Of a stretch of 64,000 nt of DNA, positions 4,153-62,472 are shown in pieces (the first letter of the stretch is position 1; the number at the start of each line of letters is the position of its first letter). Both the position numbers and the translations under genes were made by a program. The stretch comes from Desulfuromonas sp. (GTDB taxonomy: Bacteria > Desulfobacterota > Desulfuromonadia > Desulfuromonadales > Desulfuromonadaceae), in the NCBI GenBank assembly GCA_021162745.1, contig JAGGYC010000113.1, positions 11,476 through 75,475 on the forward strand, written 5' to 3'. The notes under the pieces were generated by a model. It was not told where the DNA came from, searched no databases, and was given only the letters and a program-made list of their open reading frames with translations.

Positions 4153-4179
4153 TATTTTGGCTTCATAGCTGTATATATC

Positions 4180-6003: not shown

Positions 6004-6032
6004 TTGCAGGGTGTTTTTTGCAGCTGAGCCCC

Positions 6033-6061
6033 TTGACAAAGGGGGGGACCGTTGTTATCTT
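6033..6061 (+). promoter_or_regulatory. Sigma70-type promoter of the hrcA-grpE-dnaK-dnaJ operon
   Basis: TTGACA (6033-6038), 17 bp, TATCTT (6056-6061) with an extended -10 TG; immediately upstream of CIRCE. Confidence 0.75.
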
Positions 6062-6069
6062 CTCAATTG

Positions 6070-6096
6070 TTAGCACTCACGCATCAGGAGTGCTAA
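6070..6096 (+). promoter_or_regulatory. CIRCE element (HrcA operator)
   Basis: Exact consensus TTAGCACTC-N9(ACGCATCAG)-GAGTGCTAA. Confidence 0.97.
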
Positions 6097-6155
6097 GTGT
6101 GAATGTCAGCCGGCTTGTCCGGCTTGTTGTTTTTTTACCTGTTGGAGCGCTGGTC

Positions 6156-7193: not shown

Positions 7194-7200
7194 GAGAAAT

Positions 7201-7836: not shown

Positions 7837-7869
7837 ACACATATTTCAACCCGATAAGGAGAAATTGTC

Positions 7870-9789: not shown

Positions 9790-9960
9790 TCACTGCTTAA
9801 GTGATTCATAAGTCGGGGCTGCCATGCAGCCCCGATACCATTTGACCGGGGCGTAATCGTCTCTGGTTTTTGTTGTAGCTTGGTTTTATGAGTAAACGGT
9901 GGATGAAGAGTGCTATTCGCCGCCGGGTACTAACGGATCCAGGTGTAAAGGAAACATATT

Positions 9961-11079: not shown

Positions 11080-11133
11080 AGAAGGCTCAACACAGCTGTG
11101 TGTTGTTGTTTTTTAGAATTGTGTTAATATACG

Positions 11134-11168
11134 CAGCTGTACTCTATTAGGGGTACAGCTGTTTTTTT
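11134..11168 (+). terminator. Intrinsic terminator after dnaJ
   Basis: Stem CAGCTGTAC / GTACAGCTG followed by T7. Confidence 0.75.
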
Positions 11169-11248
11169 GTATTTATGCTCTTGGTGAGCGTCTTGGACTC
11201 ACAGCATCAGGTTGTAGTTGTAGTTGTGGTTAATAAAAAGAGGTTCTC

Positions 11249-40431: not shown

Positions 40432-41838
40432 ATGATGAAACGACTGTTCATGCTGGTTGCCGTGCTGGTCGCGGTAGCACTGGCTGCGCCAAGTTGGGCG
40501 GCTATTGAGTTCTTTGGTACGGCCAAGGTCAAGCCGACCTACTATGATGATTTCGACTTTAATGACGATGCAAATGATGGATTAACTATCAACGAAGGGG
40601 GGCTGACCAAGGGCGCACATATGCGCGCCGAGCTGCGTCTGGGCTGGAAAGCCCAGGGCGATAAGTGGTCGGTGAAGATGATCACCGAGGCCGACGTGAT
40701 CATGCAGAAGGATACCGCTGATCGTAGCTACTATGTAGGTTCTGACAAATATGAAAATCCGAATACGGGCGGTGAGTTCGGTATCGAGCGTGTTGAGCTG
40801 CTTTACAAATTCAATCCGGCATTCGAACTGCAGACCGGTTGGGATATCCGTGCCCTGGATATCAAGACTGGTGGCCTACTCTACGGCGATGATCATCCGT
40901 TCATCGGTTTCCGCGGCCAACTGGCCGCGAATACTAAGTACGAGTTGCTCTACATCCCGGTTCAAAACTATGTCGATGTAAAGTCTCAGCTGGAAGACAA
41001 ATATCTAGATGCAGTAGATAGTAATGACTGGCGTGTCTATTCACTGAAGCTTAATCGGAAAGTTGGCGGTTTTAACCTCAGCCCATTTGTCGCTTACAGC
41101 GACAATGATGCTCGAGAAGCAGAAGTTGCTTACTACGGTTTTGAAATGACCGGCAAAGCCGGCAAGTTTAAGCCGTCGTTTGAGATCGTGTTTGCTGATG
41201 GTGAGTTCGATGCTGGTAGTGACATCTCCTCCATGGCCGCCTTTGCCGGTATCGAAATGGATGTGTGCAAGGCCTTTACCCCCTATGTCGCTCTGCGTTA
41301 CACCCAAGGCGATGACGATGCGACAGATGACGATGTCGAGGGCTGGGTTGGTATTACCGACATCGGTCGCTTCACTCCGCTGATGGGGATGGACGGCGGC
41401 ATTCTCAGTGAAGATCTCGGTCAGAGCTATGGCGCAACCCTCTACTCCTATTCACCAGAGCGTTTCTCCTCCGTCAATAAGGCTAACTTCTATGGTGGAA
41501 TTGGCAACGGTGGATCTGGTAATAACCCAGGTCAGATTCTGGCTGCGATTGGTGCCAAGGGTGATCTGTCCTCGGTTGTCGACAAGCTGAGCTACAAAAC
41601 CCAAGTGTTCTTCATTTGGTACGATGAGACAGATAATCTGGTCAATGCTAAGGATTCGAGCAAGGATGTTGACGACTATGCTGGTACTACCTTCGATCTG
41701 CAGTTGAAGTATGCTCTCGATAAAAACTTCAGCATCGATTACATCTTTGGTGTCTTTGTGCCGGGTGACGGTATCGAAGATCAATACGGTGACGATGTAG
41801 CGATGACCAACTGTCTGACTCTGGCCTGGACCTATTAA
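40432..41838 (+). CDS. Outer-membrane beta-barrel protein (porin-like)
   Basis: Cleavable signal peptide (APSWA), amphipathic beta-strand pattern, Asp/Gly-rich loops, aromatic C-terminus (LTLAWTY). Confidence 0.75.
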   Translation: MMKRLFMLVAVLVAVALAAPSWAAIEFFGTAKVKPTYYDDFDFNDDANDGLTINEGGLTKGAHMRAELRLGWKAQGDKWSVKMITEADVIMQKDTADRSYYVGSDKYENPNTGGEFGIERVELLYKFNPAFELQTGWDIRALDIKTGGLLYGDDHPFIGFRGQLAANTKYELLYIPVQNYVDVKSQLEDKYLDAVDSNDWRVYSLKLNRKVGGFNLSPFVAYSDNDAREAEVAYYGFEMTGKAGKFKPSFEIVFADGEFDAGSDISSMAAFAGIEMDVCKAFTPYVALRYTQGDDDATDDDVEGWVGITDIGRFTPLMGMDGGILSEDLGQSYGATLYSYSPERFSSVNKANFYGGIGNGGSGNNPGQILAAIGAKGDLSSVVDKLSYKTQVFFIWYDETDNLVNAKDSSKDVDDYAGTTFDLQLKYALDKNFSIDYIFGVFVPGDGIEDQYGDDVAMTNCLTLAWTY

Positions 41839-41983: not shown

Positions 41984-43483
41984 ATGCGTTGTCGAACACG
42001 CTTGGCTCAGGTGGTGGGCTTGGTGCTGATGCTTTTGTTGTCTTCCGCAGTGCTGGCGGCCAACTGGCCGCAGTTGGAGAAGCGGCTGCAACAGTGGCCG
42101 GGGGAAAAAGAGGTGACGTTGCCGGCGGGGGTCGATCCCTTTGATGACCCGCTGTACGCTTCTGTGGTTGATCTGTTGTTGGAACAGGGTTTTGCCATTT
42201 TGCCGACTGCCGGTGAGGCAAAGGGCGGTCTGGTGCTGAACTTCCGTACCACAAGTCGCGGTCAGATGCTGTTGCTCAAACGGGCTAGCGATGGTGCACT
42301 GCTGGCTATGGAAAAACTGGAGACGGTTACGGTACCGCAAATGAATCCGTTGACCAGTGGGCCGATCACTGAACCGATCGTATTGCGTACGGCACCACGT
42401 CACTCTTCTGCGCAGTTGATCGTTCCGACTCCGGCTATGACGACGGCCTCTGTCCTTTCGGTGCAGCATCCGGTCCAACCCTCGGTTGCCGGTGAAGTGT
42501 TGTTTGAACTCAATGGTGCGCCGCTACAAGTTGTGGTGTGGTCGACAGCCGACGAAGGGCTTGATCTGTACCTGATGTATGATGGTTATGTGCAACGTAT
42601 GCACAGTAATGGTCAAAGCCTGCAGCTGCTTGAACGCTTTACGCCGCCGCTTTCAGTCTCACGGGCATTGCATCTGGAGATCGGCGATTTGAACAGCGAC
42701 GGTCAACCGGAGCTGGCAGCGGTGTGGGCTGAAGATGTGCGCGGCGTGGCCGATGGCACCAATTCGCTGCTGCATAGCTGGGTGTTGACGGTTTCCAGTC
42801 CGGGAATCAAAGCGGTTAGTGATGATCTTGGCGGTTATATTGATTTGGCCGCAGGCCAGGGCCGCCTGCAAAAGCGTGAAGAGTATCGCTCCTTTGCTCC
42901 AGAAGTCTATGCCCTGTCCATGGATAACGGCAGTGTTGCCGTCAGTGGGCAGCCGATTGCGATCGGAACACGGTTGTTGTTCGATCAGCTTGAATGGCCG
43001 GACAGCCAGAGGGCGCTGGTGTGGAACGATGAACAGCGCCTGATGCTGGTCGCTACTTCAGCTAAAACCCGGATTCCGGGATCGACACTGTTGACTGATT
43101 TTGGCCAATACCGCGGTCCGGTGGTGTCTATCCCTCTGGAGGAGCCGGAGTATCGCAGTGGTTTTTCAGCAAATGATCAAGTGTTAGCTCGTGAAGTTTC
43201 ACTGGCGCGGCGTATGGTACGTCGTCAGGATGATGTATTTACGCTGGTGCGTGGACGTTCGGAGGGGATGGCTCTGATTGGGCGTGCTCATGGCGCGGAT
43301 CGCCTGGTGGCGATCAGTAGTGTCGGAAACAGCTTGCAGGCCAGCTATCCGTTTGCAGCCATCGAAGCCTTTATTGTTGATTTTGGCCTCTATGGTGCGC
43401 AGGTGCCGCAGGCGGCAGTGCTCCTCAACGAGAAGGCCGACGGCAGTGGTCGCAGTTACTTGCGGTTGCAGAAGCAGCTGTAG
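41984..43483 (+). CDS. Secreted hypothetical protein with one FG-GAP/VCBS-like motif
   Basis: Signal peptide (AVLA-ANW), GDLNSDGQPELA motif, beta-rich C-terminal half; AGGAGG upstream. Confidence 0.6.
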   Translation: MRCRTRLAQVVGLVLMLLLSSAVLAANWPQLEKRLQQWPGEKEVTLPAGVDPFDDPLYASVVDLLLEQGFAILPTAGEAKGGLVLNFRTTSRGQMLLLKRASDGALLAMEKLETVTVPQMNPLTSGPITEPIVLRTAPRHSSAQLIVPTPAMTTASVLSVQHPVQPSVAGEVLFELNGAPLQVVVWSTADEGLDLYLMYDGYVQRMHSNGQSLQLLERFTPPLSVSRALHLEIGDLNSDGQPELAAVWAEDVRGVADGTNSLLHSWVLTVSSPGIKAVSDDLGGYIDLAAGQGRLQKREEYRSFAPEVYALSMDNGSVAVSGQPIAIGTRLLFDQLEWPDSQRALVWNDEQRLMLVATSAKTRIPGSTLLTDFGQYRGPVVSIPLEEPEYRSGFSANDQVLAREVSLARRMVRRQDDVFTLVRGRSEGMALIGRAHGADRLVAISSVGNSLQASYPFAAIEAFIVDFGLYGAQVPQAAVLLNEKADGSGRSYLRLQKQL

Positions 43484-43645: not shown

Positions 43646-44908
43646 TCACAGTTCAAGTGAAAATGGATTTAGGAACTGACGCCCCCAAAGCAGTTTTTTG
43701 TCAATCTCATTGAACTTAGCCTCCCTGCAAACCTCGTCCCAGTGTTGTTCAATGACCATTTTCAGATGCGCAAAAATAGCTCGGGCTTCATCGCTGGAAA
43801 TTAAAAAATGATGCGCGGTTTCGAGGCAGATTTTAAGCTGGCTGAGATTATTGTTGTTTGAAATCAGCATCGCCTGGGAAGCTTCGTTTCCGGTTCGTCC
43901 CTGTGGACAGATGTCGTAGGCTGGCGTAAGTGTCAACTTTTTTCCATCCCAAAAAGCTGCATGGTTTCGTGCGTGATCATCCGTATTGCCGCATAAAATA
44001 TTGAAAACAAGACGTGTAAACAGTTCTTTGAGATTTTTTTTTGGATCGGTAAAACGGTGACGGATGATTTCTGCTAAATCTTCGTAGCTGGCATAACGCG
44101 CCATCATGTCATCAAGGCCTAAAAGGGTAAGTGCTGAAACCATGCACTTTCGCGACCAGCCTTGATTTGAACGTTCGCGATCAAAACGTTTAACCAGCAA
44201 TACGTCTCTACCTGCTGTTCTTGTCAATTTGATCGGTGCAACATCCAGTCCGGCCAAGGCGGCCAGCCTCATGGCGATAAACTCGGCTTTAACGATACTG
44301 TAAAGATCGCTGTTGGAAGAAAACTTGGCCACATATTTTATGCCCTGATCTTCAATCAATGCCTTTGGGCGTGCTCCGCCGATGGAGCTGCCATGAAAAA
44401 GTGCCAGATCCAACTCTGGTGTGAGAGGAACACCTTGTTCAACGCGTTCTGCGGAGTCAAGGAGTTCTGTCAAACTTACATTGTCGGCTGAACGGGGTAT
44501 GTATTCAGATGGCGAATGCTGAAAGTCCAGAGCACCGATACGGTCGGAGCCTGACTCCAGAAAATAGGTTAACTCGTCTAGATCGGCGGTGTCCGTATCT
44601 GTGCCCTTCAGCCCAAGCTTTCTATTGATGATGACCCGCCGTCCCCAAGCATCGGGCGCGGCATCACGAATACAGCCGGGCATATTCAACCCTTGAGGTA
44701 GGGGTAATCTTCCTGCTTTCAGGGGCAACTCCGGTTCGTAAATGGAAATTGCCGGATTTATGTTACTGGTTCGTTCAAGGTAGCTTTTGCCGTAATTGAA
44801 CAGAAGATAACCGTTGTCTGCCTCAAGCTTCCCGGCAACAACTGGCTTGGTGTCGCCGGGCAACCATATCCAGACATAAGCTTCCTTGTTGTTGTGACTA
44901 GAAGTCAT
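43646..44908 (-). CDS. hipA: HipA-family kinase toxin (with HipA N-terminal domain)
   Basis: SIGGARPKA, AKFS, AEFIAM, LVKRFDR, NTDDHARNH, PAYDI. Confidence 0.9.
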   Translation of the reverse strand: MTSSHNNKEAYVWIWLPGDTKPVVAGKLEADNGYLLFNYGKSYLERTSNINPAISIYEPELPLKAGRLPLPQGLNMPGCIRDAAPDAWGRRVIINRKLGLKGTDTDTADLDELTYFLESGSDRIGALDFQHSPSEYIPRSADNVSLTELLDSAERVEQGVPLTPELDLALFHGSSIGGARPKALIEDQGIKYVAKFSSNSDLYSIVKAEFIAMRLAALAGLDVAPIKLTRTAGRDVLLVKRFDRERSNQGWSRKCMVSALTLLGLDDMMARYASYEDLAEIIRHRFTDPKKNLKELFTRLVFNILCGNTDDHARNHAAFWDGKKLTLTPAYDICPQGRTGNEASQAMLISNNNNLSQLKICLETAHHFLISSDEARAIFAHLKMVIEQHWDEVCREAKFNEIDKKLLWGRQFLNPFSLEL

Positions 44909-50249: not shown

Positions 50250-50680
50250 AGTGTTATTTCTTTCTTGAAAACGTTGGATCTTGCGTGTGCGCTCCTGCTG
50301 CATAAAGCAAATGTGGTTAGCATAGCCCTTGGGTTAAGTCAAACGAATTAGGCTCCTGGCAGGGGAGGAGAAGGGGCGTTTATGTATGGATTTGACGTAT
50401 AAACACATAGTGTAAACTGTATACAGTATTCAACAGAAGTTTGAGAAATAAATGTGGCTGGCTGTGAAGTGTGAGTCAAAACAGCTGGTTACATCTGTAG
50501 CGCTTTTGCCTGAGGGGAGATCTTCTAATAAATTCTTGACAAGATGAGGCCATTCCGATAGAAAATACAAGGTTTTTTATGTTGGATGTAATGCGTGTAA
50601 AAGCACGTTTATGACTTGAAACTGTGCACGGTTGCAATGTGGGCCTGTGTACGAATTTTCCCTCTAGGGAGGCGTGAGGT

Positions 50681-51073
50681 ATGGCCGAACAGTATTTGGT
50701 CGATTATATGTATGTGTTGGTGCTCTTGCTCGCGGGTATTGCCTGCGGCTTGGGTCCTCTGGTGATCTCCAGAATTTTTGCACCGCGGGAGTTGTATCGT
50801 AAGACTCTGGAACCATATGAGTGTGGTATGGATCCTTACGGGACGGCATGGAATATCCGTTTTGATATTTCCTACTACCTGTACGCGTTGATCTTTCTGG
50901 CGTTCGATGTTGATGTTCTGTATCTGTTTCCTGTCGCCACAGCCTTCGACAAGGTGTCGGCGGTAAGGGGGATTTCTGAACTGCTAATCTTTGTTGGTAT
51001 TTTGGCGCTGGCGATTGTTTATGCCTGGGCCAAGGGAGTATTTACGTGGCCGAACAGAAGAAAAGTCTGCTAA
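50681..51073 (+). CDS. nuoA: Complex I-like subunit A
   Basis: [27 protein letters not shown]; GGAGG RBS. Confidence 0.93.
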
Positions 51074-51639
51074 ACGTCCACTCCTATTCCAAGGAGTGTC
51101 TGGAGCGCTATGATGGCGCTCTTCCGCAGAGAACCAAGACCTCAGAAGATGGGCCTTTGCTTGAGATGAAGTTGTCTGACACGATTTTCAATCTGTGTCG
51201 GGCAAACTCGCTGTGGCCGATGACCTTCGGATTGGCGTGCTGTGCAATCGAAATGATGTGCTGTGGTATGGCCCGTTTCGATATGGCGCGTTATGGTGCC
51301 GAGGTGTTTCGTCCTTCACCGCGACAATCGGACCTGTTGATTGTTGCTGGTACTGTTAATCGCAAGATGGCTCCGGCTGTTGTTACCCTGTACGAGCAAA
51401 TGCCGGCGCCTCGCTATGTTATTGCTCTGGGTAACTGTGCAATTTCCGGTGGTCCGTTTGCGGTTGAAGCGAATTATGATGTCGTTCTCGGTGTGGATCA
51501 GCTGATCCCGGTCGATGTCTATGTCCCCGGTTGTCCGCCTCGCCCGGAAGCCTTGATCGAAGGAATCCTGCAACTGCAGGAGCAGATCACCGGCAAGCGC
51601 TTTCCGTTCCCGCAGAACAAGATGCCGGAGGGAGCTTAG
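51046..51639 (+). CDS. nuoB: Complex I-like subunit B (N2 cluster)
   Basis: [10 protein letters not shown] (tandem CC, complex I type), [23 protein letters not shown]. Confidence 0.95.
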
Positions 51640-51643
51640 CATT

Positions 51644-52159
51644 ATGGACGTTAAAAACGTTGTACAACAATGGCAGAATATGGCGACCTCGGTTGAAGAG
51701 GTTGACTACTCTGTCAGTGGCTATGATTACAGTGTCTGCCTGGAAGGGGAGAAACTGTCTGCTTTTGCCGGGCTGATGCTCAACGAGGGCTTCTATCTGG
51801 TGGATCTGATGGCGGTGCACGTTGAACCCGCTATCGAAGTGGTCTACCAGTTTGCCCATTTTAAAACCCGGTGTCGGGTGATGGCACGGGCCTTTGTCGA
51901 TGGCAAGGGTGAAATTCCGACCATTTCAGACATTTACCAGGGTGCGAACTGGCATGAACGTGAGACCCGTGATTTCCACGGTGTTGTATTCACTGGTCAT
52001 CCCAATCTGGAACCGCTGATTCTGGCGGAAGAAGATGTGGATCTGAAGCCGCTGCTCAAGGACGAGAAAAAGCTCAAGGGTGTTGCCGCCGTACGGCGTG
52101 TACAGCCTGAGCCTGAAGCAGCGAAACCTGAAGCAGTCAAGAGTCCGGAGCAGAGCTGA
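51644..52159 (+). CDS. nuoC: Complex I-like subunit C
   Basis: ANWHERETRDFHGVVFTGHPNL. Confidence 0.9.
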   Translation: MDVKNVVQQWQNMATSVEEVDYSVSGYDYSVCLEGEKLSAFAGLMLNEGFYLVDLMAVHVEPAIEVVYQFAHFKTRCRVMARAFVDGKGEIPTISDIYQGANWHERETRDFHGVVFTGHPNLEPLILAEEDVDLKPLLKDEKKLKGVAAVRRVQPEPEAAKPEAVKSPEQS

Positions 52160-52164
52160 TTGTC

Positions 52165-53286
52165 ATGAATGTAGATGTTTTAGAAGATGAAAGACATCAC
52201 CGCTTCGTTCTGAATATGGGGCCCCAGCATCCCAGTACCCACGGGGTATTGCGTGTGCTGTTGGAGCTTGAAGGCGAGTATGCTATGAGCCTTCAACCCG
52301 TACTCGGATACGGACACCGGTGTCACGAGAAGATCGCTGAGTATAAGCCTGCCAAGTCGTTTATGCCTAACACGGCTCGCATGGATTACCTCGGTGCATT
52401 GATTTATAACCATGGTTACGCTCAGCTGCTGGAGAAGGCAACGGGTATTGAGGCGCCGCAGCGTGCCGAGTATATTCGTGTCATCACCTCCGAGCTCAAC
52501 CGTATTCAGAGCCACTTGCTGTGGTACGGTGCCTACCTGCTGGACCTCGGGGCATTTACCCCCATCATGTACTCTTTTGATGATCGTGAACATATCCTCG
52601 ATATCCTCGAAGATGTTACCGGTTCACGGCTGACCTATTGCTACTATAGGGTCGGCGGGGTGTGCAGGGATATCGACGATAAATTTATTGCCGGCACCCG
52701 TCAGTTTATTGATCGTTTGCGTAGCCGTTTCCCCATGTACGAGGATCTGGTCAATGGTAATGTGATTCTTCAGAATCGCTTGAATGGTATTGGTGATCTG
52801 ACGCCACAGACCTGCGCTCGTTATGGTGTCACTGGGCCGTTACTGCGTGGAACCGGTGTTGCCTACGACATGCGTCGTGCTGAGCCTTACTCTGTTTATC
52901 CTGAATTTGACTTCGAGATCCCGACGGAGACCAAGGGTGATTGTATGGCGTCGTTTTTGGTTCGTTTCCGTGAGATGGAGCAGAGTTTGCGCATCATCGA
53001 ACAGGCGCTGGATCGATTGCCCGAAGGGCCGATAATGGCGGCCAAGGTGCCTAAGAAATTGAAGATCCCGGCCGGAGATTACAACAGTTCGGTTGAGGCA
53101 CCACGTGGTGAGTTGTCTTACTATCTGGTTGCTGACGGTTCTGATACTCCATACCGCCTCAAGGTGAGAACGCCATCCTATTCCAATCTGAGCGTTGTCT
53201 CCGAACAGTGTGCGGGGATGTTGCTTTCTGACGTGGTATCAGCCATGGGTTCTCTGGACCTGGTTATTCCCGAGATTGACAGGTAG
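52165..53286 (+). CDS. nuoD: Complex I-like subunit D (quinone-site type, no NiFe motifs)
   Basis: LNMGPQHPSTHGVLR, RMDYL, EAPRGE, DLVIPEIDR; no CxxC nickel ligands. Confidence 0.95.
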   Translation: MNVDVLEDERHHRFVLNMGPQHPSTHGVLRVLLELEGEYAMSLQPVLGYGHRCHEKIAEYKPAKSFMPNTARMDYLGALIYNHGYAQLLEKATGIEAPQRAEYIRVITSELNRIQSHLLWYGAYLLDLGAFTPIMYSFDDREHILDILEDVTGSRLTYCYYRVGGVCRDIDDKFIAGTRQFIDRLRSRFPMYEDLVNGNVILQNRLNGIGDLTPQTCARYGVTGPLLRGTGVAYDMRRAEPYSVYPEFDFEIPTETKGDCMASFLVRFREMEQSLRIIEQALDRLPEGPIMAAKVPKKLKIPAGDYNSSVEAPRGELSYYLVADGSDTPYRLKVRTPSYSNLSVVSEQCAGMLLSDVVSAMGSLDLVIPEIDR

Positions 53287-53291
53287 ATCAT

Positions 53292-54278
53292 ATGGAAATC
53301 TTAAATAGTATTCTCCCGGAGTTGATTCGGATTGTTATCTGTGCGGTCTGTGGAGCTGTGATTGTTTTCGGCAATGCGCTGGTGATGGGTTATGCCGAGC
53401 GTAAATTGGCCGGACACTTCATGTTGCGTCCCGGTCCGATGGAAGTTGGATTTCACGGTATTATTCAGTTGGTTGTCGACGGCTTGAAGTTGATGGGTAA
53501 GCAATTGGTAGTTCCGGCCAAGGCCGATAAGCCGTTGTTCATGTTGGCACCTATCCTGGCTTTTGCACCGGTTTTCATTCCGCTGCTGGTGATCCCGTTC
53601 AGTGATAAGCTGCAAGGCTTTGATTTGGATGTTGGCTTGTTGCTGATACTGGCCGTTGCATCAATTAACGTTCTGGCCATTCTGATTGGTGGTTGGGGCT
53701 CGAACAACAAGTATTCATTGTTTGGTGCCTTCCGTTCTGTTGCTCAGAATGTTGCTTACGAAATCCCCATGCTGATTTCACTGTTGGCCATTGTATTCAT
53801 GACCAACACCTTCAGCTTGCGTGAGATCGCTGCCGCTCAAAGTCCGGTATGGTTTGTCATCCTTCAGCCGCTGGCATTTTTAATCTATATCGTTGCCATG
53901 GTCGCTGAAACCAACCGCGCACCTTTTGACCTCCCCGAGGCCGAGAGTGAGCTGACCGCCGGTTTCCATACCGAGTATAGTGGTATGAGCTTCAGTCTGT
54001 TCGTGTTGGGCGAGTATGCCAACATGTTCATCGTCTGTAGTATTGCGACGGTCTTTTTCCTCGGCGGTGATTCTGGAATCCCACTGCCATACTTTGAGTA
54101 TAGCGGCGCGATCTGGTTCTTGGCCAAGGTGTATGCTCTGATGTTCTTCCTGGTCTGGATCCGTTGGACATACCCACGGACCCGATTCGATCAGTTGATG
54201 AACTTCTGCTGGAAGTACCTGATTCCATTTTCGCTGGTTAATCTGTTAATTACTGTCGTGATGGTGAAGCTGATATGA
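53292..54278 (+). CDS. nuoH: Complex I-like subunit H
   Basis: ERK...RPGP, DGLKLMGK, YEIP, AETNRAPFDLPEAESEL, RTRFDQLM. Confidence 0.95.
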   Translation: MEILNSILPELIRIVICAVCGAVIVFGNALVMGYAERKLAGHFMLRPGPMEVGFHGIIQLVVDGLKLMGKQLVVPAKADKPLFMLAPILAFAPVFIPLLVIPFSDKLQGFDLDVGLLLILAVASINVLAILIGGWGSNNKYSLFGAFRSVAQNVAYEIPMLISLLAIVFMTNTFSLREIAAAQSPVWFVILQPLAFLIYIVAMVAETNRAPFDLPEAESELTAGFHTEYSGMSFSLFVLGEYANMFIVCSIATVFFLGGDSGIPLPYFEYSGAIWFLAKVYALMFFLVWIRWTYPRTRFDQLMNFCWKYLIPFSLVNLLITVVMVKLI

Positions 54279-54715
54279 AATCCTATTTCTCAGAATTGTT
54301 TACGGGAGGATGGAGCCTTATCCTTGGCCTGAAGGTCACTATCAAGTCTCTGTTTTCTCCTATTGTTACGGTACAGTATCCACGCGAAAAGCTGGAAATT
54401 ACACCGAATTACCGTGGTCACATCGATCTGGTCAAAGATCCAGAGAATGGTAGCCATAAATGTATCACCTGTGGCAGCTGCATGCGTGAGTGTCCGTCCG
54501 ATTGTATTGTTATCGAAGGCGAAAAGCGCGAAGGGGTCAAAGGCAAGGTATTAACGGTGTTTACCCTCGATTTTACCAAGTGCAGCCTGTGCGGTGCTTG
54601 TGTTGAGGCTTGTCCTACCGACGCACTGGATTATTCCAATGAGTATGAGCTGGCGGGTGAAGCGCGTTCGGATTTCTACTTTGATATTTTAAAAAGAGTG
54701 GAGGAACGGAAATGA
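54275..54715 (+). CDS. nuoI: Complex I-like subunit I (2x[4Fe-4S])
   Basis: CITCGSCMRECP and CSLCGACVEACP. Confidence 0.93.
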   Translation: MKSYFSELFTGGWSLILGLKVTIKSLFSPIVTVQYPREKLEITPNYRGHIDLVKDPENGSHKCITCGSCMRECPSDCIVIEGEKREGVKGKVLTVFTLDFTKCSLCGACVEACPTDALDYSNEYELAGEARSDFYFDILKRVEERK

Positions 54716-55236
54716 TAGTTTATAAGTACATCGCCGAAATCCTCTTTTATGCCTTTATGATCTTGACGTTCATGGGCGGGTTTATGGCAGTTCGATCCAA
54801 AATGCTGATGCATGCGGTGTTGGGCTTGGCCGTTTCGCTGTTTGGTGTGGCTGGTTTGTATTTCCACCTCGGCAGCCCTTTTCTGGCTATGATGCAGATC
54901 CTGATCTATGTCGGTGCGGTCTGTATCATGATTGTCCTCGGGGTTATGCTCGGCAATACACCGGATCAACTGGCGGTCAAGAATTTCTCCGGTCGCAATA
55001 CGCTGCTGGCTTTGTTGGCTTGTGCAACAGGTTTCTTTACTTTGTTTGTTGCCATTGGCCAGACAAAGTTTGTTCCGGCGGCAGAAAGAATCGGCGACAT
55101 GTCGATCCGTTTTGTCGGTGAGAACCTGTTGTTCAAGTATTGCCTGGCCTTTGAATTGATTTCAGTTGTCTTGTTGACAGCTATTATCGGTGCCATCATT
55201 CTGGCACGCGGCGGTCGGGAGGAAGTGGCAAAATGA
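54712..55236 (+). CDS. nuoJ: Complex I-like subunit J
   Basis: QILIYVGAVCIM, FELISVVLL; hydrophobic. Confidence 0.9.
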   Translation: MIVYKYIAEILFYAFMILTFMGGFMAVRSKMLMHAVLGLAVSLFGVAGLYFHLGSPFLAMMQILIYVGAVCIMIVLGVMLGNTPDQLAVKNFSGRNTLLALLACATGFFTLFVAIGQTKFVPAAERIGDMSIRFVGENLLFKYCLAFELISVVLLTAIIGAIILARGGREEVAK

Positions 55237-55550
55237 TGATCAGCGGTGAATTAAATACGTACCTGATTATTTCAGCGATTCTGCTGGTAATCGGTCTATA
55301 CGGCATGGTGCAACATCGTTCTTTGATCGGCATGCTGATTTCAAGTGAATTTATCCTCAACGGTGCCGCGCTGAACTTTATGGCGTTTAATCGTTTTATT
55401 GCGCCGAACCCTGCGGTTGGTCAGATCTACACCCTGTTTATCATGGGTATTGCCGCAGCTGAAGCGGCGATTGTGGTTAGTATTATCATCGCGGTGTACC
55501 GCAAGTATCGCAGTGAAGATCCTGAGCAGGTTCAGGACCTGAAAATGTGA
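55233..55550 (+). CDS. nuoK: Complex I-like subunit K
   Basis: EFILNG, AAAEAAI; 105 aa, 3 TM. Confidence 0.92.
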   Translation: MMISGELNTYLIISAILLVIGLYGMVQHRSLIGMLISSEFILNGAALNFMAFNRFIAPNPAVGQIYTLFIMGIAAAEAAIVVSIIIAVYRKYRSEDPEQVQDLKM

Positions 55551-55636
55551 TATCGCTTTGCTGACGGTTATGAAATCTATAACGGCGGTCACGCGGCTTA
55601 AGCTAGCGCGACACACCACTTGAGAAAGTACTTGCA

Positions 55637-57130
55637 ATGAACACAATTATCACCAGCAAGATTCTTATAACAATGTTGATCCCGATGATTACGGGTCTGC
55701 TTGTTATGTTTTCGGGGAAGAAGCCGAATCTGCGCGACAGCTGGTCGACGCTCGGCGCTATCCTTACCTTTGCCTCGGTACTGAGTTTTCTCCCTGTCAT
55801 TCAGGCGGGAGATCAGCTTAAGTACACACTGTTTGAACTCTATCCGGGTATCTCGGTCACCTTGAACCTTGATCCCCTGGGCGTGATTTTTGCGATGGTC
55901 GCATCCTTTTTGTGGATTCTGGCCAGTCTCTACTGCGTCGGGTACATGCGCGGTCTGGATGAGCATGCTCAAACCCGTTTTTATGTCTGCTATGCGGTTT
56001 CCGTTGGCGCAGCCATGGGAGCGGCGTTCGCGGGTAACCTGTTTACCCTCTATCTGTTCTACGAGATCGTTTCGATCTTCACCTACCCACTGGTTATGCA
56101 CCACCAGGATGAAGAGGGTTACGCCGGAGCGAAGAAATACATCGTTTACCTGATGTTTACCTCCAAGGCGTTTTTGCTGCCGGCCATGATTATGATCTAT
56201 GTGCTGTGCGGTACCCTGGACTTTAACACCGCCAGTATTGCACAGGGTATTTTCCCCGCCGAAGCCGATCGCTTCGTCGTTGGTATTACCTACTTCCTGT
56301 GTCTGTTCGGTTTCGCTAAAGCGGGTATCATGCCGTTTCATAACTGGTTACCGGATGCGATGGTTGCACCGACACCGGTATCGGCACTGCTTCATGCCGT
56401 GGTTGTTGTTAAGGTTGGTGTGTTCTCTGTCTGTCGTGTCATGTTGTCGATTTATGGTACGAACCTGTTACACGAAACGGGGTTGGGACTATTTACGGCC
56501 TACTTTGTTTCATTTACCATCCTGACGGCATCAGTCATTGCGTTGACCAAGACGAATCTCAAAGCGCGTCTGGCATATTCAACGGTCAGCCAGTTGTCCT
56601 ACATCATTCTCGGTGTGGCGATGCTGACGCCGAATTCGATTACCGGTGGTTTGATCCATATTGCTAACCATGCGTTGGCCAAGATCACATTGTTCTTCGC
56701 GGCCGGTTGTATCTTTGTCGCCAGCGGCAAGAAGGATATCTCAGAGATGGGTGGCCTCGGCAAACGGATGCCGTTCACAATGCTTGCTTTTGGTGTGGCA
56801 TCTCTGGGTATGATTGGCGCACCACCGGTAGGCGGTTTTGTAACGAAATGGTATTTAGCTTTAGGTACCATGGATATTCATAATTATATTCTGCTGGGCG
56901 TCTTGTTACTCAGTAGCTTGCTTAATGCCGGTTATTTTGTCCCCATCTTCCTGACGGCATTTTTTGGCAAGCCACTCCCTGCCGATGAAGGCTTAACAAG
57001 TAGCCTTGAGACGAAGCCGTTGATAATGTTTATGGTTGTTCCTCTGGTAATTACCGGAACACTTTCGGCGCTTATTGGTGTTTATCCCGATCTGTTCCTG
57101 AACCTCATTAATCTGTTGGTGAAGCCATGA
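55637..57130 (+). CDS. MrpD-like antiporter-type subunit
   Basis: 497 aa; FYE, PFHNWLPDAMVAPTPVSALLHAV, LAYSTVSQL; no C-terminal lateral helix. Confidence 0.85.
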   Translation: MNTIITSKILITMLIPMITGLLVMFSGKKPNLRDSWSTLGAILTFASVLSFLPVIQAGDQLKYTLFELYPGISVTLNLDPLGVIFAMVASFLWILASLYCVGYMRGLDEHAQTRFYVCYAVSVGAAMGAAFAGNLFTLYLFYEIVSIFTYPLVMHHQDEEGYAGAKKYIVYLMFTSKAFLLPAMIMIYVLCGTLDFNTASIAQGIFPAEADRFVVGITYFLCLFGFAKAGIMPFHNWLPDAMVAPTPVSALLHAVVVVKVGVFSVCRVMLSIYGTNLLHETGLGLFTAYFVSFTILTASVIALTKTNLKARLAYSTVSQLSYIILGVAMLTPNSITGGLIHIANHALAKITLFFAAGCIFVASGKKDISEMGGLGKRMPFTMLAFGVASLGMIGAPPVGGFVTKWYLALGTMDIHNYILLGVLLLSSLLNAGYFVPIFLTAFFGKPLPADEGLTSSLETKPLIMFMVVPLVITGTLSALIGVYPDLFLNLINLLVKP

Positions 57131-57375
57131 TTGTACAATTTCTAACTTATTTGCGGGAGAGACCTACAATGCTCAAATGGCTTTTTATGGCCATCTTGGC
57201 TTTTTGTCTCGTATTTGATTTCTTTGCTGAGCGTCACCATGCTCACTTCTGGGGCGATCATGTGGTTGAGTTCTGGGCGATGTTTGGTTTGGCGGGTTGT
57301 ATGGGAATGATTGTATTTTGTAAAGGGCTGTCGCACGTATGGCTGGAAAGGGATACGGATCATTATGACAAGTAG
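57127..57375 (+). CDS. Small 2-TM membrane protein of the complex I-like cassette
   Basis: 82 aa; 4-bp overlap with the upstream gene and 11-bp overlap with the downstream gene; two hydrophobic segments around a HHAHFW loop. Confidence 0.75.
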   Translation: MIVQFLTYLRERPTMLKWLFMAILAFCLVFDFFAERHHAHFWGDHVVEFWAMFGLAGCMGMIVFCKGLSHVWLERDTDHYDK

Positions 57376-59131
57376 TATCTTTATGCATCCGGCCGTTTTG
57401 TTTATTTTCGGCGCGATGCTGTTACCATTATTCAAGAAGTTTAACGCCCAAAAGATCTGGCTGGTAGTTGTACCGCTGCTGGCATTTATTCAGATCAAGT
57501 ATCTGCCATCATCTTTTGGTTGCGTTGAGTGGTTGGGCTTCAAGTTGCAGTTCGGTCGTGTTGACCAGTTGACCATGGTTTTTTTGCATGTCTTCACCTT
57601 GATGGCGTTGATCGGCAGTATCTTTGGTTTACATGTCAAGGAAAGTGGCCAGCATGCTGCGGCATGGCTTTACGTAGCAGGTTCTCTGGGTACCACCCTT
57701 GCTGGTGATTATCTGGTGGTATTCATTTTCTGGGAGCTGATGGCATTCGCTTCGGTATTCCTGGTATGGTATCGCAAGCGTAAGCGCTCGATAGAGGCTG
57801 GTTATCGCTACCTTCTGGTTCATACAGCAGGCGGATTGATATTGCTGGGTGGGATTTTCCTCCATTATCAACGTGTGCATGATCTTAGTTTTGTTGCCGT
57901 GTCACCGGACAGTGCTACGTTGGCAGAATACCTGATTATGATCGGGTTTATGCTTAATGCAGCTGTGCCACCAATTCATGCCTGGTTGCCTGATGCCTAT
58001 CCTGAAGCAACAGTGACCGGCGCGGTGTTCATGTGTGCCTTTACCACCAAGACAGCTGTCTATGTGTTGGCACGCGGTTTCGCCGGCTTTGAAACACTGG
58101 CAATCATGGGTGCGATCATGACCCTGTATGGGGTTTTCTACGCGGTTATCGAGAATGACGCCCGGCGCATTCTCGCCTATCATATTGTCAGTCAGGTCGG
58201 TTACATGGTGTGCGGTGTTGGTATCGGTACAGAGATGGCGGTAAATGGCGCCTGTGCTCATGCTTATGCTCATATTCTTTATAAGGCGTTGCTGTTCATG
58301 GGCATCGGTAGTGTCCTTGAGATGACCGGACGCTCTAAACTGAGCGAATTGGGCGGCTTATATAAGTATATGCCTTTTACCATGATCTTTACCGTTATCG
58401 GCGGTATCTCAATCTCTGGGTTCCCGCTCACCAGCGGTTTTATCAGTAAATCGATGATTATTTCTGCCGCTGGTGCTGATCACCGCTTGATTATCATGAG
58501 TATGCTGGCTCTGGCCGCCGTAGGTACCTTCCTCTCGGTTGGTATCAAACTGCCATATTTCGTGTTCTTCGGACCAAAGGATAGTGGGATAAAGCCAAAA
58601 GAGGCGCATTGGAATATGCAACTGGGTATGTTCATGGGCGCATTTATGTGTATCTTCTTGGGTGTCTACCCCGAGTACCTCTATAATATGCTTCCATATG
58701 CTGTTCATTATCATCCTTACAATAGTTATCACTTGGCGGAGACGTTCCATCTGCTAGGTTTTACTGCCCTTGGTTTTTATCTGATGGTCAGATATCTGAC
58801 TCCGCACGATGTCTCCAACCTCGACCTCGACTGGTTCTATCGTCGTGGTGCCGGTTGGTTCATGTGGACTGCTCGTAATCCGATTTCTGCAACGAATGAA
58901 TGGGTGAGCAATATCTATCAGAATGTAGGTCTGCGCTTTACCATGGCTCTGGCTCGTGCTCTTTCCTGGTTTGACTGGGAAGGGATCGACTGGGCTCTTG
59001 ATGGTAGCGCCAAGGGTGTTGTTAAGGGTGGTGAGCAAGTACGTCAGTTCCAGACAGGTAAACTTCAGCACTATATCGGTGCCGCAGTGGCCTTGTTGTT
59101 CTTGGTGCTGATTGTTGTTGTTCTGATCTGA
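57365..59131 (+). CDS. MrpA/NuoL-like antiporter-type subunit with C-terminal lateral helix
   Basis: FWE, PIHAWLPDAYPEA, LAYHIVSQVG, then DWFY...QTGKLQHY and a terminal TM as in NuoL. ATG 57365 chosen as start. Confidence 0.85.
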   Translation: MTSSIFMHPAVLFIFGAMLLPLFKKFNAQKIWLVVVPLLAFIQIKYLPSSFGCVEWLGFKLQFGRVDQLTMVFLHVFTLMALIGSIFGLHVKESGQHAAAWLYVAGSLGTTLAGDYLVVFIFWELMAFASVFLVWYRKRKRSIEAGYRYLLVHTAGGLILLGGIFLHYQRVHDLSFVAVSPDSATLAEYLIMIGFMLNAAVPPIHAWLPDAYPEATVTGAVFMCAFTTKTAVYVLARGFAGFETLAIMGAIMTLYGVFYAVIENDARRILAYHIVSQVGYMVCGVGIGTEMAVNGACAHAYAHILYKALLFMGIGSVLEMTGRSKLSELGGLYKYMPFTMIFTVIGGISISGFPLTSGFISKSMIISAAGADHRLIIMSMLALAAVGTFLSVGIKLPYFVFFGPKDSGIKPKEAHWNMQLGMFMGAFMCIFLGVYPEYLYNMLPYAVHYHPYNSYHLAETFHLLGFTALGFYLMVRYLTPHDVSNLDLDWFYRRGAGWFMWTARNPISATNEWVSNIYQNVGLRFTMALARALSWFDWEGIDWALDGSAKGVVKGGEQVRQFQTGKLQHYIGAAVALLFLVLIVVVLI

Positions 59132-59182
59132 CCCTGCCTGCTTGTTAACGGATAGGCAATTACTCTTAGACAGTAGGAAGTC

Positions 59183-60778
59183 ATGGAAAAGTATCTAATC
59201 CTGAACACATTGAATTTCCCGATCTTATCGATGCTGCTGATCGTACCGGTAGTCGGGGCTATTGTTGCCATGTTTTTACGTGGCGATACGTTGCTGAAAT
59301 TCTGGGGTCTGGCAGTGACCCTGGCCACTGCAGTGATCTCTCTGCCGTTGTGGACATGTTTTGACCAGACAACGGCCAAGTATCAGTTTGTCGAACTGCG
59401 GCACTGGTTCCCGGCACTGAATCTTGAGTATGTGATTGGTGTCGATGGTATCAGTGTACTGCTGGTGCTGCTGACAACATTTGTGATGCCGTTGTGTGTC
59501 CTGTGCTCCTGGACCTACATCAAAATCCGGATGAAAGAGTTCATCATCGTCACATTGTTGATGGAAACCGCCATGCTTGGTGTTTTCATGAGCATGAACA
59601 CGGTCTTGTTCTACATCTTCTGGGAAGGGATGCTGGTTCCCATGTACCTGATCATTGCGATCTGGGGTGGGGCGCGCAAAGACTACGCATCGATCAAGTT
59701 TTTCCTCTACACCTTTGCCGGCAGTATCTTTCTGTTGGTCGCGATCATTGCTATGTACATCAAAACGGGGACCTTCTTCATTCCTGAGTTGATGGATCAT
59801 AGCTTCACTTTTGCATTCCAGTTGTGGGTGTTCCTGGCTTGTGCCATCGGTTTTGCCATCAAGATGCCGATGTTCCCATTCCACACCTGGTTGCCTGCAG
59901 CGCACGTTGAGGCCCCGGTGGCCGGTTCCGTTATTCTGGCCAGTATCCTGTTGAAGATGGGTGGCTACGGATTTTTGCGCTTCTGTCTGCCCATGGCACC
60001 TGCGGCAACATTATACTGTGTACCTTACCTGCTTGTTATGTCGCTGATCAGTATCATTGTCGGCGGTTATCTGGCCTTGGGCCAGTCTGATATCAAGAAA
60101 CTGATCGCTTATTCTTCAGTCGGTCACATGGGTTTTGTTACCTTGGGTATCTTCCTGCTCAATGATGCCGGTATCAAAGGCGCCATGTTGCAGATGCTCA
60201 ATCACGGTGTAACAACCGGCGCACTGTTTATCCTGATCGGTATCATTTACGAGCGGACACATAGTCGTGAGATCTCGGACAACAACAAGCTTGGTATGTT
60301 TATGCCAATCTATGTAACGTTCCTCGGCATCTTCTCACTGTCGTCGTTGGCGTTCCCCGGAACGAACAGCTTTGTCGGTGAGTTCTTGGTGTTGTTCGGT
60401 GCATTTGACAAGTACCCATTGGTCGGTGCGGTGTCGATCCTTGGTGCAGTCCTGGCTGCTGCTTACATGCTGCGTCTGTTGCAGAAAATGGTCTGGGATG
60501 ACTCTGACGGTCATGCCCACCATGGCGACGATCACGGTGATGATGAGCACCACCTTTTCGATTGTAACTTCCGTGAATTTATTCAGCTGGCGTTCTTGAC
60601 CGTATTCGTATTCTGGATCGGCCTCCATCCGACGCCGTTATTGGATATGATGGACACTAGTGTGGCCCACCTGATTCATCAGGTAGATGCAGGCAGCGCT
60701 GTTCAAGAAGCTGTCCATCATGGTGAGCACCATGCCCTGTTAAACAACGCAGGTGCCTGGGTCAAGAACCTCTTCTAA
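59183..60778 (+). CDS. nuoM: Complex I-like subunit M
   Basis: GVDGISV, FWEGMLVPMY, PFHTWLPAAHVEAP, LLKMGGYG, AYSSVGHMG, AFPGTNSFVGE. Confidence 0.93.
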   Translation: MEKYLILNTLNFPILSMLLIVPVVGAIVAMFLRGDTLLKFWGLAVTLATAVISLPLWTCFDQTTAKYQFVELRHWFPALNLEYVIGVDGISVLLVLLTTFVMPLCVLCSWTYIKIRMKEFIIVTLLMETAMLGVFMSMNTVLFYIFWEGMLVPMYLIIAIWGGARKDYASIKFFLYTFAGSIFLLVAIIAMYIKTGTFFIPELMDHSFTFAFQLWVFLACAIGFAIKMPMFPFHTWLPAAHVEAPVAGSVILASILLKMGGYGFLRFCLPMAPAATLYCVPYLLVMSLISIIVGGYLALGQSDIKKLIAYSSVGHMGFVTLGIFLLNDAGIKGAMLQMLNHGVTTGALFILIGIIYERTHSREISDNNKLGMFMPIYVTFLGIFSLSSLAFPGTNSFVGEFLVLFGAFDKYPLVGAVSILGAVLAAAYMLRLLQKMVWDDSDGHAHHGDDHGDDEHHLFDCNFREFIQLAFLTVFVFWIGLHPTPLLDMMDTSVAHLIHQVDAGSAVQEAVHHGEHHALLNNAGAWVKNLF

Positions 60779-60797
60779 CTCAAGAATCGGATCAATT

Positions 60798-62216
60798 ATG
60801 TTAAACACAGTTTTTTTGCCGGAATTGGCACTGATGTTAACGGTCCTGGTCTTGTTCTTCATGACCTTGGGCAAATTTCGCACAGGAACGGTGCAAGCCG
60901 TTAGTTTACTGCTTGCAGCGGTTACGTTGGTTGCAACGTTTGCCAGCTATGGCCAGCAGGGTAGTTTGTTTTTTGATGCCTATCAGATAGACAACCTGTC
61001 CCAACTGTTTAAAATGGCGATTGTTGGTGGCCTGTTTCTGATTTTCTTTCTCGGGCGTGGCTTGGTTGGTATTCAGGGAAAACTTCATTCTGAATACAAT
61101 ATGTTCCTTGCCATCAGTGCGATGGGATTGGTATTCCTCAGTAGCTCCGTGGAATTACTGACCATCCTGCTGAGCCTGGAGATCTCTTCGTATGCGTTGT
61201 ACGTCGTGATTCCATTCCGTCGTGGTCAGGGTCGTATGCATGTTGAAGCAGGCATTAAATATGTACTGTTTGGTGCGGCATCAACCGGTCTTACATTGTA
61301 CGGCATGAGCTATGTCTACGGTTTAACCGGCACTACATACCTCAATGAGCTGGCGACCTTGATGCCATCACTCATTGCGACTCAGCCACTGGCCATTATT
61401 GCTATGGTGCTGGTTATGACGGCATTCTTCTACAAACTGGCCATGTTCCCGATGCATTTCTGGACTCCTGATGTTTATCAGGGTGCATCCAATGAAACAT
61501 CCAGCTTTGTTGCGACCTTGCCCAAGGCAGGTGCAGTGCTGTTGTTGTTACGCTTTGTTAACGTCGCCGGTGTTGATGTCACTCAGTTCACCTGGGTGCT
61601 GGCTACAATTGCCGTATTCTCCATGACGTTGGGTAACTTGACGGCGCTGGTACAAACAGATCTGAAGCGCCTGTTGGCCTATTCAAGTATTGCTCATGCC
61701 GGTTACGTCATGATCGGTATCTTGACTTCGGATGAGATGGGTATGGCTGCGGCTGTATTTTATGTCATCGGTTATCTGTTGATGAACCTCGGTTGCTTCT
61801 ATGTTATCTACAACATTGCTCCTGATGGTCAGAATGTTTCCTTTGATGATCTTAAAGGGCTGTCGCGTCGTTCACCGTTGCTCGCACTGACTCTGATGGT
61901 TTCTGCCTTCGGTATGGCAGGTATTCCGCCGACAATCGGATTTATTGGTAAATTTATGATCTTTACCGGCGCGATCCACAAAGGGTTCTATGCTCTGGTT
62001 ATCATCGCGGTAATGAACGCAGCCGTTGCAGCGTTCTACTACCTGAAGATGGCTCGTGCCGCCTACTGCGGTGCTGATGATGATCAAGACGCAATTGCGC
62101 TGCCTTTGGGTGCCAAATTGCTGGGTACGTTCTTTATCCTCTCGATTATCATCGTCGGGGCGATGCCTCAGAGTTTGCTTGCTGTTGCAAAAGAAGCGGT
62201 AGCGACGATACTCTAA
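60798..62216 (+). CDS. nuoN: Complex I-like subunit N
   Basis: EAGIKY, FPMHFWTPDVYQGA, KRLLAYSSIAHAGY, AGIPPTIGFIGK, YYLK. Confidence 0.93.
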   Translation: MLNTVFLPELALMLTVLVLFFMTLGKFRTGTVQAVSLLLAAVTLVATFASYGQQGSLFFDAYQIDNLSQLFKMAIVGGLFLIFFLGRGLVGIQGKLHSEYNMFLAISAMGLVFLSSSVELLTILLSLEISSYALYVVIPFRRGQGRMHVEAGIKYVLFGAASTGLTLYGMSYVYGLTGTTYLNELATLMPSLIATQPLAIIAMVLVMTAFFYKLAMFPMHFWTPDVYQGASNETSSFVATLPKAGAVLLLLRFVNVAGVDVTQFTWVLATIAVFSMTLGNLTALVQTDLKRLLAYSSIAHAGYVMIGILTSDEMGMAAAVFYVIGYLLMNLGCFYVIYNIAPDGQNVSFDDLKGLSRRSPLLALTLMVSAFGMAGIPPTIGFIGKFMIFTGAIHKGFYALVIIAVMNAAVAAFYYLKMARAAYCGADDDQDAIALPLGAKLLGTFFILSIIIVGAMPQSLLAVAKEAVATIL

Positions 62217-62236: not shown

Positions 62237-62265
62237 AAAAAGGCCCACCTCTGGTGGGCCTTTTT
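62237..62265 (+). terminator. Intrinsic terminator closing the nuo-like operon
   Basis: AAAAAGGCCCACC-TCT-GGTGGGCCTTTTT. Confidence 0.85.
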
Positions 62266-62472
62266 GTTTTTACAGTGATCAATAACCCGCAGTTCTCACA
62301 AGCAATCTGCTGCGAAGCTCGGAAGTACCATGTCTGCTGCGTTACGCTTGAAAAATATTCTCGACAGACTGAAAGTATGCCTGCAAATATTTTCTGTGCG
62401 TGCCTTGCATCCACGACACTTCCAAGCTTCTCGCGACGATCTTTGTGAGAAAAGCGCGATAGAGGAAATATT

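Follow-up and report, generated by a model that had tools for sequence, protein, structure and literature searches.

Two types of complex I with a fourth antiporter-type pump are known, namely the 2M type of Nitrospira, which has an extra NuoM, and green complex I, in which two MrpD-like subunits replace NuoL (PMC9040806). The 2M type of Nitrospira and other bacteria is credited to Chadwick et al. 2018 (as cited in PMC9040806, PMC6606698 and PMC7784846), and the green complex I of Rhizobium, Sinorhizobium and Ensifer to Degli Esposti & Martinez-Romero 2016 (as cited in PMC9040806 and PMC7415380). A third relevant group is the eleven-subunit headless complex I (cyanobacterial NDH-1, Fpo-like and NUO11 enzymes), which dispenses with NuoEFG and for which ferredoxin is usually assumed to be the donor (PMC3144371, PMC4758237), and "NUO11+M" operons have been listed earlier in deltaproteobacteria (PMC4758237). 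Here we describe an operon of Desulfuromonas sp., located at positions 50681-62216 of an analysed stretch of 64,000 nucleotides (nt; hereafter the window), which is part of contig C36 of a 2.9 Mb assembly that is 97% complete. On the evidence set out below the operon probably specifies a complex I of 13 subunits that belongs to the green complex I type, is devoid of the module for reduced nicotinamide adenine dinucleotide (NADH), and would combine a membrane arm of four antiporter-like subunits with electron entry from ferredoxin. A previous sequence-only reading of this DNA had held that such cassettes were known from genomes and were for the most part biochemically uncharacterised, which agrees with the literature searched, where no structure or stoichiometry was found for any four-pump complex.

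The operon consists of 13 intact, closely packed open reading frames (ORFs), all on the forward strand and in the order nuoA-B-C-D-H-I-J-K-X-s-L'-nuoM-nuoN (Table 1), where X denotes a 497-amino acid (aa) antiporter-like protein, s an 82-aa two-helix protein and L' a 588-aa NuoL-like protein. NuoA, B, C, D, H, I, J and K were recognised by Pfam together with four Proton_antipo_M proteins, and the ORFs, Pfam and NCBIfam together bear out the gene order given by the sequence-only reading (an MrpD-like gene, an 82-aa gene and a NuoL-like gene between nuoK and nuoM) as well as its claim that four antiporter-type subunits are encoded as one unit. The NADH/flavin mononucleotide module of canonical 14-subunit complex I, made up of NuoE, F and G, is lacking: neither nuoE, nuoF nor nuoG is present within the operon, and the gap between nuoD and nuoH measures only 5 nt, so that none of the three can lie between these genes. 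Genome-wide, NuoE (PF01257) gave no match in the 97%-complete assembly, and the sole match to the NuoF family (PF01512, Complex1_51K) was RnfC, so the headless nature claimed for the complex holds beyond the operon itself.

The quinone-reducing core is complete, comprising NuoA, B, C, D, H, I, J, K, M and N together with the N2 cysteines and the quinone-site His/Tyr. All four N2-cluster cysteines of NuoB, the tandem CC included, align with those of E. coli NuoB, and NuoD contains both HPSTHG and the tyrosine of the DY motif. The same alignment revealed no NiFe cysteines in NuoD, the N-terminal site reading HPSTHG and the C-terminal site being without cysteine, which distinguishes it from the large subunit of group 4 [NiFe] hydrogenases (Mbh, Ech, Hyf) with their NiFe-binding CxxC pairs; the former assignment to a quinone-type complex rather than a hydrogenase is thereby upheld. 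NuoD is also without a segment of approximately 20 aa that E. coli NuoCD and the second NuoD of this genome carry, and the FpoD model covers it from end to end. At the level of alignment, NuoB, C, D and I are shown to make up a quinone-reducing module of normal composition, and the proximal membrane arm formed by NuoH, A, J, K, N and M is normal as well. A Hyf/Ehr-like cluster is present elsewhere in the genome (contig C42:7167-16468), with two HyfB-like proteins and HyfC-, HyfE-, HyfF-, HyfG- and HyfI-like proteins; its large subunit has AGDTTIGH at the NiFe CxxC position and the cluster may specify a hydrogenase-related complex without the metal site.

A search of plasmid-encoded proteins with X yielded 152 records, mainly from Sinorhizobium, Rhizobium and Ensifer. 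On S. meliloti pSymA the corresponding genes are arranged as nuoJ-K, an MrpD-family protein of 487 aa, a hypothetical protein of 84 aa, an antiporter D of 586 aa, and then M-N-A-(B)-C-D-E-F; X and L' share 52% and 51% identity, respectively, with the pSymA proteins and the 84-aa protein aligns with s. The laboratory strain S. meliloti 1021 is a carrier of this pSymA cassette. The operon described here and that of rhizobial green complex I therefore have in common the X-s-L' cassette in place of NuoL, the local order X-s-L'-M-N, and a second Mrp-like subunit that bears the lateral helix. The rhizobial operon, however, is rearranged, with J-K-...-N preceding A-D, and it specifies an NADH enzyme since nuoE and nuoF are included, whereas the present operon follows the A-D, H-N order without E/F/G, in a genome without an NADH module and with menaquinone as the likely acceptor. 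A maximum-likelihood phylogeny of the four large subunits, a check that the sequence-only reading had proposed, placed the M protein of the operon within NuoM, as sister to rhizobial NuoM, and its N protein within NuoN. X formed a clade of its own with rhizobial X and the Mrp-type X' (see below), as did L' with rhizobial L' and the Mrp-type L'', each with support of 100/100 and both apart from NuoL+MrpA, NuoM, NuoN and MrpD; the support of 68/35 for the deep branching among antiporter families means that the family of origin of X and L' is not inferable from this tree.

In the 2M complex I a fourth antiporter-like subunit is likewise present, and is there, according to the accounts cited above, a second NuoM with NuoL kept, whereas here X falls outside the NuoM clade, NuoL is replaced and no NuoL-clade protein is found in the operon. 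In Complex_I_3 of "Ca. Manganitrophaceae" NuoL is likewise replaced by these two MrpD-like subunits, but a second NuoM brings the number of pumps to five and the helix has another insertion of 26 aa (PMC9040806). The eleven-subunit headless enzymes resemble the present complex in having no NuoEFG, a canonical quinone module and proximal arm, and a NuoD of FpoD-like length (PMC3144371, PMC4758237), but they carry three antiporter-like subunits including a true NuoL/NdhF, as compared to four and no NuoL here. The operon thus adds one more ordinary case to a class that has been published and is widespread but has not been studied biochemically.

A search with X limited to one genome per species identified 144 relatives, and 80 loci were kept for comparison of gene order. 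Every sufficiently long locus among the 80 displayed the order A-B-C-D-H-I-J-K-X-s-L'-M-N, so the operon is no chance feature; it is real and looks functional. The holders of these loci belong to the Desulfuromonadales, Desulfobacterales, Desulfobulbales, Syntrophorhabdaceae and Desulfovibrionales, with one metagenome-assembled genome of the Verrucomicrobiota, and many of them are marine. Cultured organisms among them are Desulfuromusa kysingii DSM 7343, Pelovirga terrestris and Desulfoluna butyratoxydans/limicola. A 13-gene Nuo cluster of Desulfurivibrio dismutans, which is probably of this type, is reported to show strong upregulation when sulfur is disproportionated (PMC12142623). Across the loci X and L' are the most conserved of the 13 proteins, for example at 76% identity as compared to 57% for NuoA and 51% for NuoC, and an X-family gene was detected in 66 of 150 evenly sampled other genomes of the phylum (E <= 1e-80). 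Although the operon adds nothing new in kind, it shows that a four-pump arm is widespread, without an NADH module, in culturable organisms.

X matches NF006236 at 744 bits (cut-off 663), a model labelled Mrp subunit D, while the scores of X and L' against the NuoL model are no higher than 168-183 bits. The description of X as MrpD-like by the sequence-only reading agrees with the NCBIfam label, but the nearest solved relatives of X are MbhH, MrpA and NuoL, and in the tree its clade is separate from MrpD. The alignment with E. coli NuoL, M and N established that the channel residues of X are complete, comprising Glu in transmembrane helix 5 (TM5; E143), Lys in TM7 (K228), His and Lys in TM8 (H253, K259), the His/His/Lys set in TM11 (H341, H345, K349) and Lys in TM12 (K404). 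K259 is retained in at least 90% of the 19 orthologues and the other seven residues in all 19. Judged by these residues, X is shown to be a complete antiporter-like subunit. Two further features of X may be recorded: the motif HHQD following TM5 (residues 155-158, nt 56099-56110) is invariant in 19/19 orthologues, and Lys177 aligns with Asp178 of E. coli NuoL.

L' matches NF009310 at 743 bits (cut-off 564), also labelled Mrp subunit D, and it alone among the subunits of the operon has TM15, a lateral helix and TM16. Its AlphaFold 2 model (predicted local distance difference test score, pLDDT, of 79) places TM15 at residues 454-477, the helix at 490-560 (pLDDT 45-67) and TM16 at 568-587, and the folds closest to the model are those of MrpA, NdhF and NuoL. 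The distance from the DWFY motif to QTG is 78 residues in every L' orthologue, as compared to 49 in E. coli NuoL and 53 in the canonical NuoL encoded elsewhere in this genome. From DWFY to FD..DG there are 48 residues in L', as compared to 23 in the canonical NuoL of the genome and 21 in that of E. coli, thus 25 extra; past FD..DG, L' and the canonical NuoL are equal with 28 residues each, and the whole excess precedes that motif. In E. coli NuoL the first motif immediately precedes the L/M boundary, and the second is found where NuoL touches NuoM (PMC3274701). The 25 extra residues, equivalent to approximately 37 Å, would therefore fall at the L/M boundary and be consistent with the insertion of a subunit between L' and M. 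In the 2M complex I, as reported in the sources cited for it, the helix insertion of the distal subunit is 26 aa; here 25 extra residues are counted between the motifs, while the total helix is not longer than in canonical NuoL.

Several observations weigh against the reading of the operon as a four-pump, ferredoxin-fed complex I. The TM7 lysine found in every canonical antiporter-like subunit is replaced in L' by Asn198 (codon 57956-57958). The total lateral helix of L' measures 71 aa as compared to 75 aa (563-637) in the canonical NuoL of the genome by the same prediction method, and a long helix also occurs in four of seven Mrp-type paralogues, where there are only two subunits to span. Finally, the flanks of the operon were searched for an electron-input gene and offered no candidate, and a donor-binding feature was not found in the operon proteins. 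With regard to the helix, the prediction indicates that L' is missing the stretch that covers the L subunit proper, hence the total is no longer than usual. In the Mrp-type paralogues the distance from the first motif to the C-terminus ranges from 76 to 111 residues, and the lengths in 73 family representatives fall into two groups, of approximately 75-84 and 100-109, that do not correspond to the Mrp and Nuo settings of the genes. The use of lateral-helix length as a counter of the subunits spanned was considered and ruled out by the totals of 71 versus 75 aa and by the long Mrp-type forms. As modelled, the helix is compatible with the order N-M-X-L' for the membrane arm, and does not prove it.

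The loss of the TM7 lysine bears directly on stoichiometry. The position is Asn in all 23 L' orthologues and also in the rhizobial and Mrp-type copies, and across the family it is Asn in 95 and Lys in 24 of 127 full-length representatives, whereas the solved relatives nearest to L', MbsH' (6u8y) and Dietzia MrpA (7d3u), have Lys. Since Asn stands in place of the TM7 lysine, L' may not pump in the usual way, and four antiporter-like subunits need not give five ions. The extra ion per cycle proposed by the sequence-only reading is consequently not established, the Asn of L' leaving the stoichiometry uncertain. The complex may even move no extra ion, with L' acting mainly as a clamp whose channel is altered or inactive, while X, which has the full residue set of an L/MrpA-type pump, would do the work of NuoL, so that approximately four ions would be moved per two electrons. 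We consider this somewhat unlikely, albeit a serious possibility, as L' almost universally retains the TM5 Glu, TM8 Lys, TM11 His/His/Lys and TM12 Lys and is, together with X, the most conserved protein of the operon, which goes beyond the needs of a mere clamp.

The small protein s has a conserved loop on the periplasmic side, HxHFWGD, and a C-terminal EDYYD, and gave no match to Pfam, NCBIfam or PDB sequences. It is located between X and L' in all related loci and in S. meliloti pSymA, and a paralogue occurs in the Mrp cluster of this genome. Because s is strictly linked to X and L', it would appear to play a structural role in the distal module. An origin of s as a remnant of TM15/TM16 from a split NuoL-like protein was rejected, the profile-profile comparison with the C-terminal part of L' giving a probability of 0.1%.

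The cassette is not confined to complex I. Contig C144 carries a complete Mrp-type cluster (4686-12294) of MrpE, MrpF, MrpG, an MbhD-MbhE-MnhB fusion, MrpC and MrpD, followed by X'-s'-L'', in which X' is 46% identical to X, L'' is 38% identical to L' and s' (approximately 10260-10516) is an 85-aa two-helix protein ending in EEFYD. The layout mrpE-F-G-(B)-C-D-X'-L'' recurs in six more genomes of the phylum, an s-like ORF being recovered in only one of them, and these clusters correspond to the irregular Mrp antiporters of "group 3", in which several MrpD-like genes are present (PMC5703873, PMC7784846). In this genome paralogues of X, s and L' end such a cluster, which carries MrpE, F, G and B, whereas the operon studied here is without these and joined to a redox module; likewise it does not encode the MrpE, F, G and B (or the MrpA C-terminal domain) of an Mrp cation/proton antiporter. 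By gene content, the X-s-L' cassette is thus shown to occur in both complex I and Mrp-type clusters.

This sharing raises the question of whether X and s might stand outside complex I, joining a separate Mrp antiporter, as the sequence-only reading had envisaged as a counter-case, or forming a free-standing transporter, and the curated models do name X and L' Mrp subunit D. The Mrp cluster on C144 has its own X', s' and L'', however, so the X of the nuo operon is very unlikely to serve Mrp; moreover every locus has X-s-L' placed between nuoK and nuoM, the operon would have no NuoL without L', and in none of the examined loci is L' found without X and s. We therefore give this alternative almost no credence. 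Transport of Na+ instead of, or besides, H+ by an Mrp-derived cassette is in our view improbable as well. It would accord with the sharing of X-s-L' with Mrp-type clusters, with the Na+/H+ antiport activity of cyanobacterial group 3 Mrp (PMC5703873) and with the marine habitat of many holders of the operon, but the small Mrp subunits E, F, G and B are all missing from the operon, no Na+ site is readable from the sequence, and the earlier suggestion of Na+ movement finds no support in X, M and N, which carry the usual Glu/Lys/His residues of a proton path.

As to the electron donor, the genome contains six genes for 2-oxoacid:ferredoxin oxidoreductases (POR_N). An rnfABCDGE cluster is located on contig C57 (33758-38794), and its RnfC is the only Complex1_51K protein of the genome. 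The absence of NuoE and NuoF, the many ferredoxin-reducing enzymes and the presence of Rnf together point to reduced ferredoxin as the most likely source of electrons. The ferredoxin or flavodoxin donor put forward by the sequence-only reading is in this respect plausible, but it gains nothing from the operon itself, which has neither a donor-binding feature nor a linked donor gene. Contig C24 encodes, on the reverse strand (1465-6117), an 859-aa NuoG/FdhA-like protein beside a 671-aa GltD-like iron-sulfur flavoprotein; the pair resembles SfrAB of Geobacter, holds the only NuoG-type domain of the genome and is unlinked to nuo. Such a pair, or else a hydrogenase or formate dehydrogenase, could act as an unlinked module that delivers electrons from NAD(P)H or another substrate instead of ferredoxin. 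This we judge decidedly unlikely, as no gene of this kind is linked to the operon and the NADH-using rhizobial relatives carry nuoE and nuoF inside theirs.

A second nuo operon is located approximately 30 kb downstream on the same contig (C36:92495-102715), with the order A-B-C-D-H-I-J-K-L-M-N and a true NuoL of 659 aa; it, too, is without E/F/G, and its nuoD-nuoH gap is 96 nt. The search for a second nuo operon or free nuoEFG genes that the sequence-only reading had suggested thus returned another headless operon and no free NuoE or NuoF. In total the genome has 13 antiporter-like genes in four clusters, namely the operon studied, the second nuo operon, the Mrp cluster on C144 and the Hyf/Ehr-like cluster on C42, and on the basis of gene content a three-pump and a four-pump headless complex I coexist in this genome and on the same contig.

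In the mechanism that we favour, all four large subunits would share a single membrane arm, with N-M-X-L' as the most likely order, L' clamping the arm by its lateral helix and terminal anchor helix and s serving as a small structural subunit of the distal module. Electrons would enter most likely from reduced ferredoxin, either directly or by way of a partner encoded elsewhere, and be passed on to menaquinone. With the extra subunit, the ion ratio may rise from 4 to 5 per two electrons. At textbook potentials the span between ferredoxin and menaquinone is approximately 0.35 V, which corresponds to approximately 173 mV per proton at 4 H+/2e- and approximately 138 mV at 5, whereas that between NADH and menaquinone is approximately 0.25 V, or only approximately 123 mV per proton at 4. 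A five-proton enzyme is thus sensible only with a low-potential donor, and such an enzyme would be reversible near physiological proton-motive force. NADH could still reach menaquinone through ferredoxin, given Rnf and the absence of NuoEF.

The same arithmetic leaves room for a complex that runs mainly in reverse, with the proton-motive force lifting electrons from menaquinol to the level of ferredoxin for use in biosynthesis, as five protons at approximately 140-150 mV would about suffice. The ordinary 11-subunit headless operon 30 kb away could then perform the forward reaction, and reverse operation has been proposed for other four- and five-pump complexes including the Nitrospira 2M enzyme (PMC9040806, PMC7784846). 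The sequence, however, says nothing on direction, and Rnf could already make reduced ferredoxin from NADH, so a predominantly reverse role is regarded as unlikely.

Beyond the preferred reading of a ferredoxin:menaquinone complex I with four antiporter-like subunits, we tentatively suggest that X-s-L' may represent a portable distal pump module that has been plugged into both Mrp and complex I, in which s would be obligatory, L' would work without the TM7 lysine and, here, the ratio would be five ions. If true, the NuoEF-less Desulfuromonadales would gain a coupling site between ferredoxin and menaquinone that is reversible and cooperates with Rnf. Complexes I that have more than three pumps offer the clearest natural experiment on what sets the ion/electron ratio, and none is known to have been purified or solved; a distal subunit L' without the lysine thought essential for pumping is a testable structural and stoichiometric target. 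The points worth keeping from this locus are the Asn of L', the undescribed s, the cassette shared by Mrp and Nuo clusters, and the culturable holders.

The features of the operon are listed in Table 1. X and s overlap by 4 nt and the stop of s overlaps the start of L' by 11 nt, thereby suggesting that X, s and L' may be translationally coupled. The start of L' is most likely the ATG at 57365, which gives 588 aa, an alternative TTG at 57311 being less likely. The closing terminator noted by the sequence-only reading is plain in the letters, GGCCCACC-TCT-GGTGGGCC followed by TTTTTGTTTTT, and was not listed by a consensus scanner.

Table 1. Coordinates of the operon genes and the flanking regulatory signals within the window.
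Feature	Position	Strand	Description	Evidence
Candidate sigma-70 promoter	50536..50564	+	TTGACA, 17 nt, TAGAAA; approximately 120 nt 5' of nuoA	Consensus match only, weak; missed by consensus scanner
nuoA	50681..51073	+	130 aa	PF00507, E 7e-30
nuoB	51046..51639	+	197 aa from GTG; real start possibly later	PF01058
nuoC	51644..52159	+	171 aa	PF00329
nuoD	52165..53286	+	373 aa; quinone type, FpoD-like length	PF00346
nuoH	53292..54278	+	328 aa	PF00146, E 1.5e-114
nuoI	54275..54715	+	146 aa; two 4Fe-4S motifs	Fer4 families; alignment
nuoJ	54712..55236	+	174 aa	PF00499
nuoK	55233..55550	+	105 aa	PF00420
X	55637..57130	+	497 aa; without lateral helix; first gene of the cassette	NF006236; PF00361 and weak PF00662
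s	57127..57375	+	82 aa; two transmembrane helices	Conserved between X and L'
L'	57365..59131	+	588 aa; TM15, lateral helix and TM16; in the place of NuoL	NF009310
nuoM	59183..60778	+	531 aa; canonical	TIGR01972, 575 bits; E148, K227, K258, E400 present
nuoN	60753..62216	+	487 aa; canonical	TIGR01770, 349 bits; E143, K228, K258, K400 present
Intrinsic terminator	62237..62271	+	A-tract, 8-bp G+C stem, 3-nt loop, T-tract	Read from sequence

The operon is flanked by genes for an aminotransferase, an HI0933-like flavoprotein, a transketolase, a SEC-C protein and a methyltransferase. Elsewhere in the window, a HipA-like kinase gene (HipA_C, Couple_hipA) on the reverse strand at 43646-44908 probably specifies the toxin of a toxin-antitoxin pair, and two long ORFs on the forward strand, of 468 aa (40432-41838) and 499 aa (41984-43483), are without a Pfam match.

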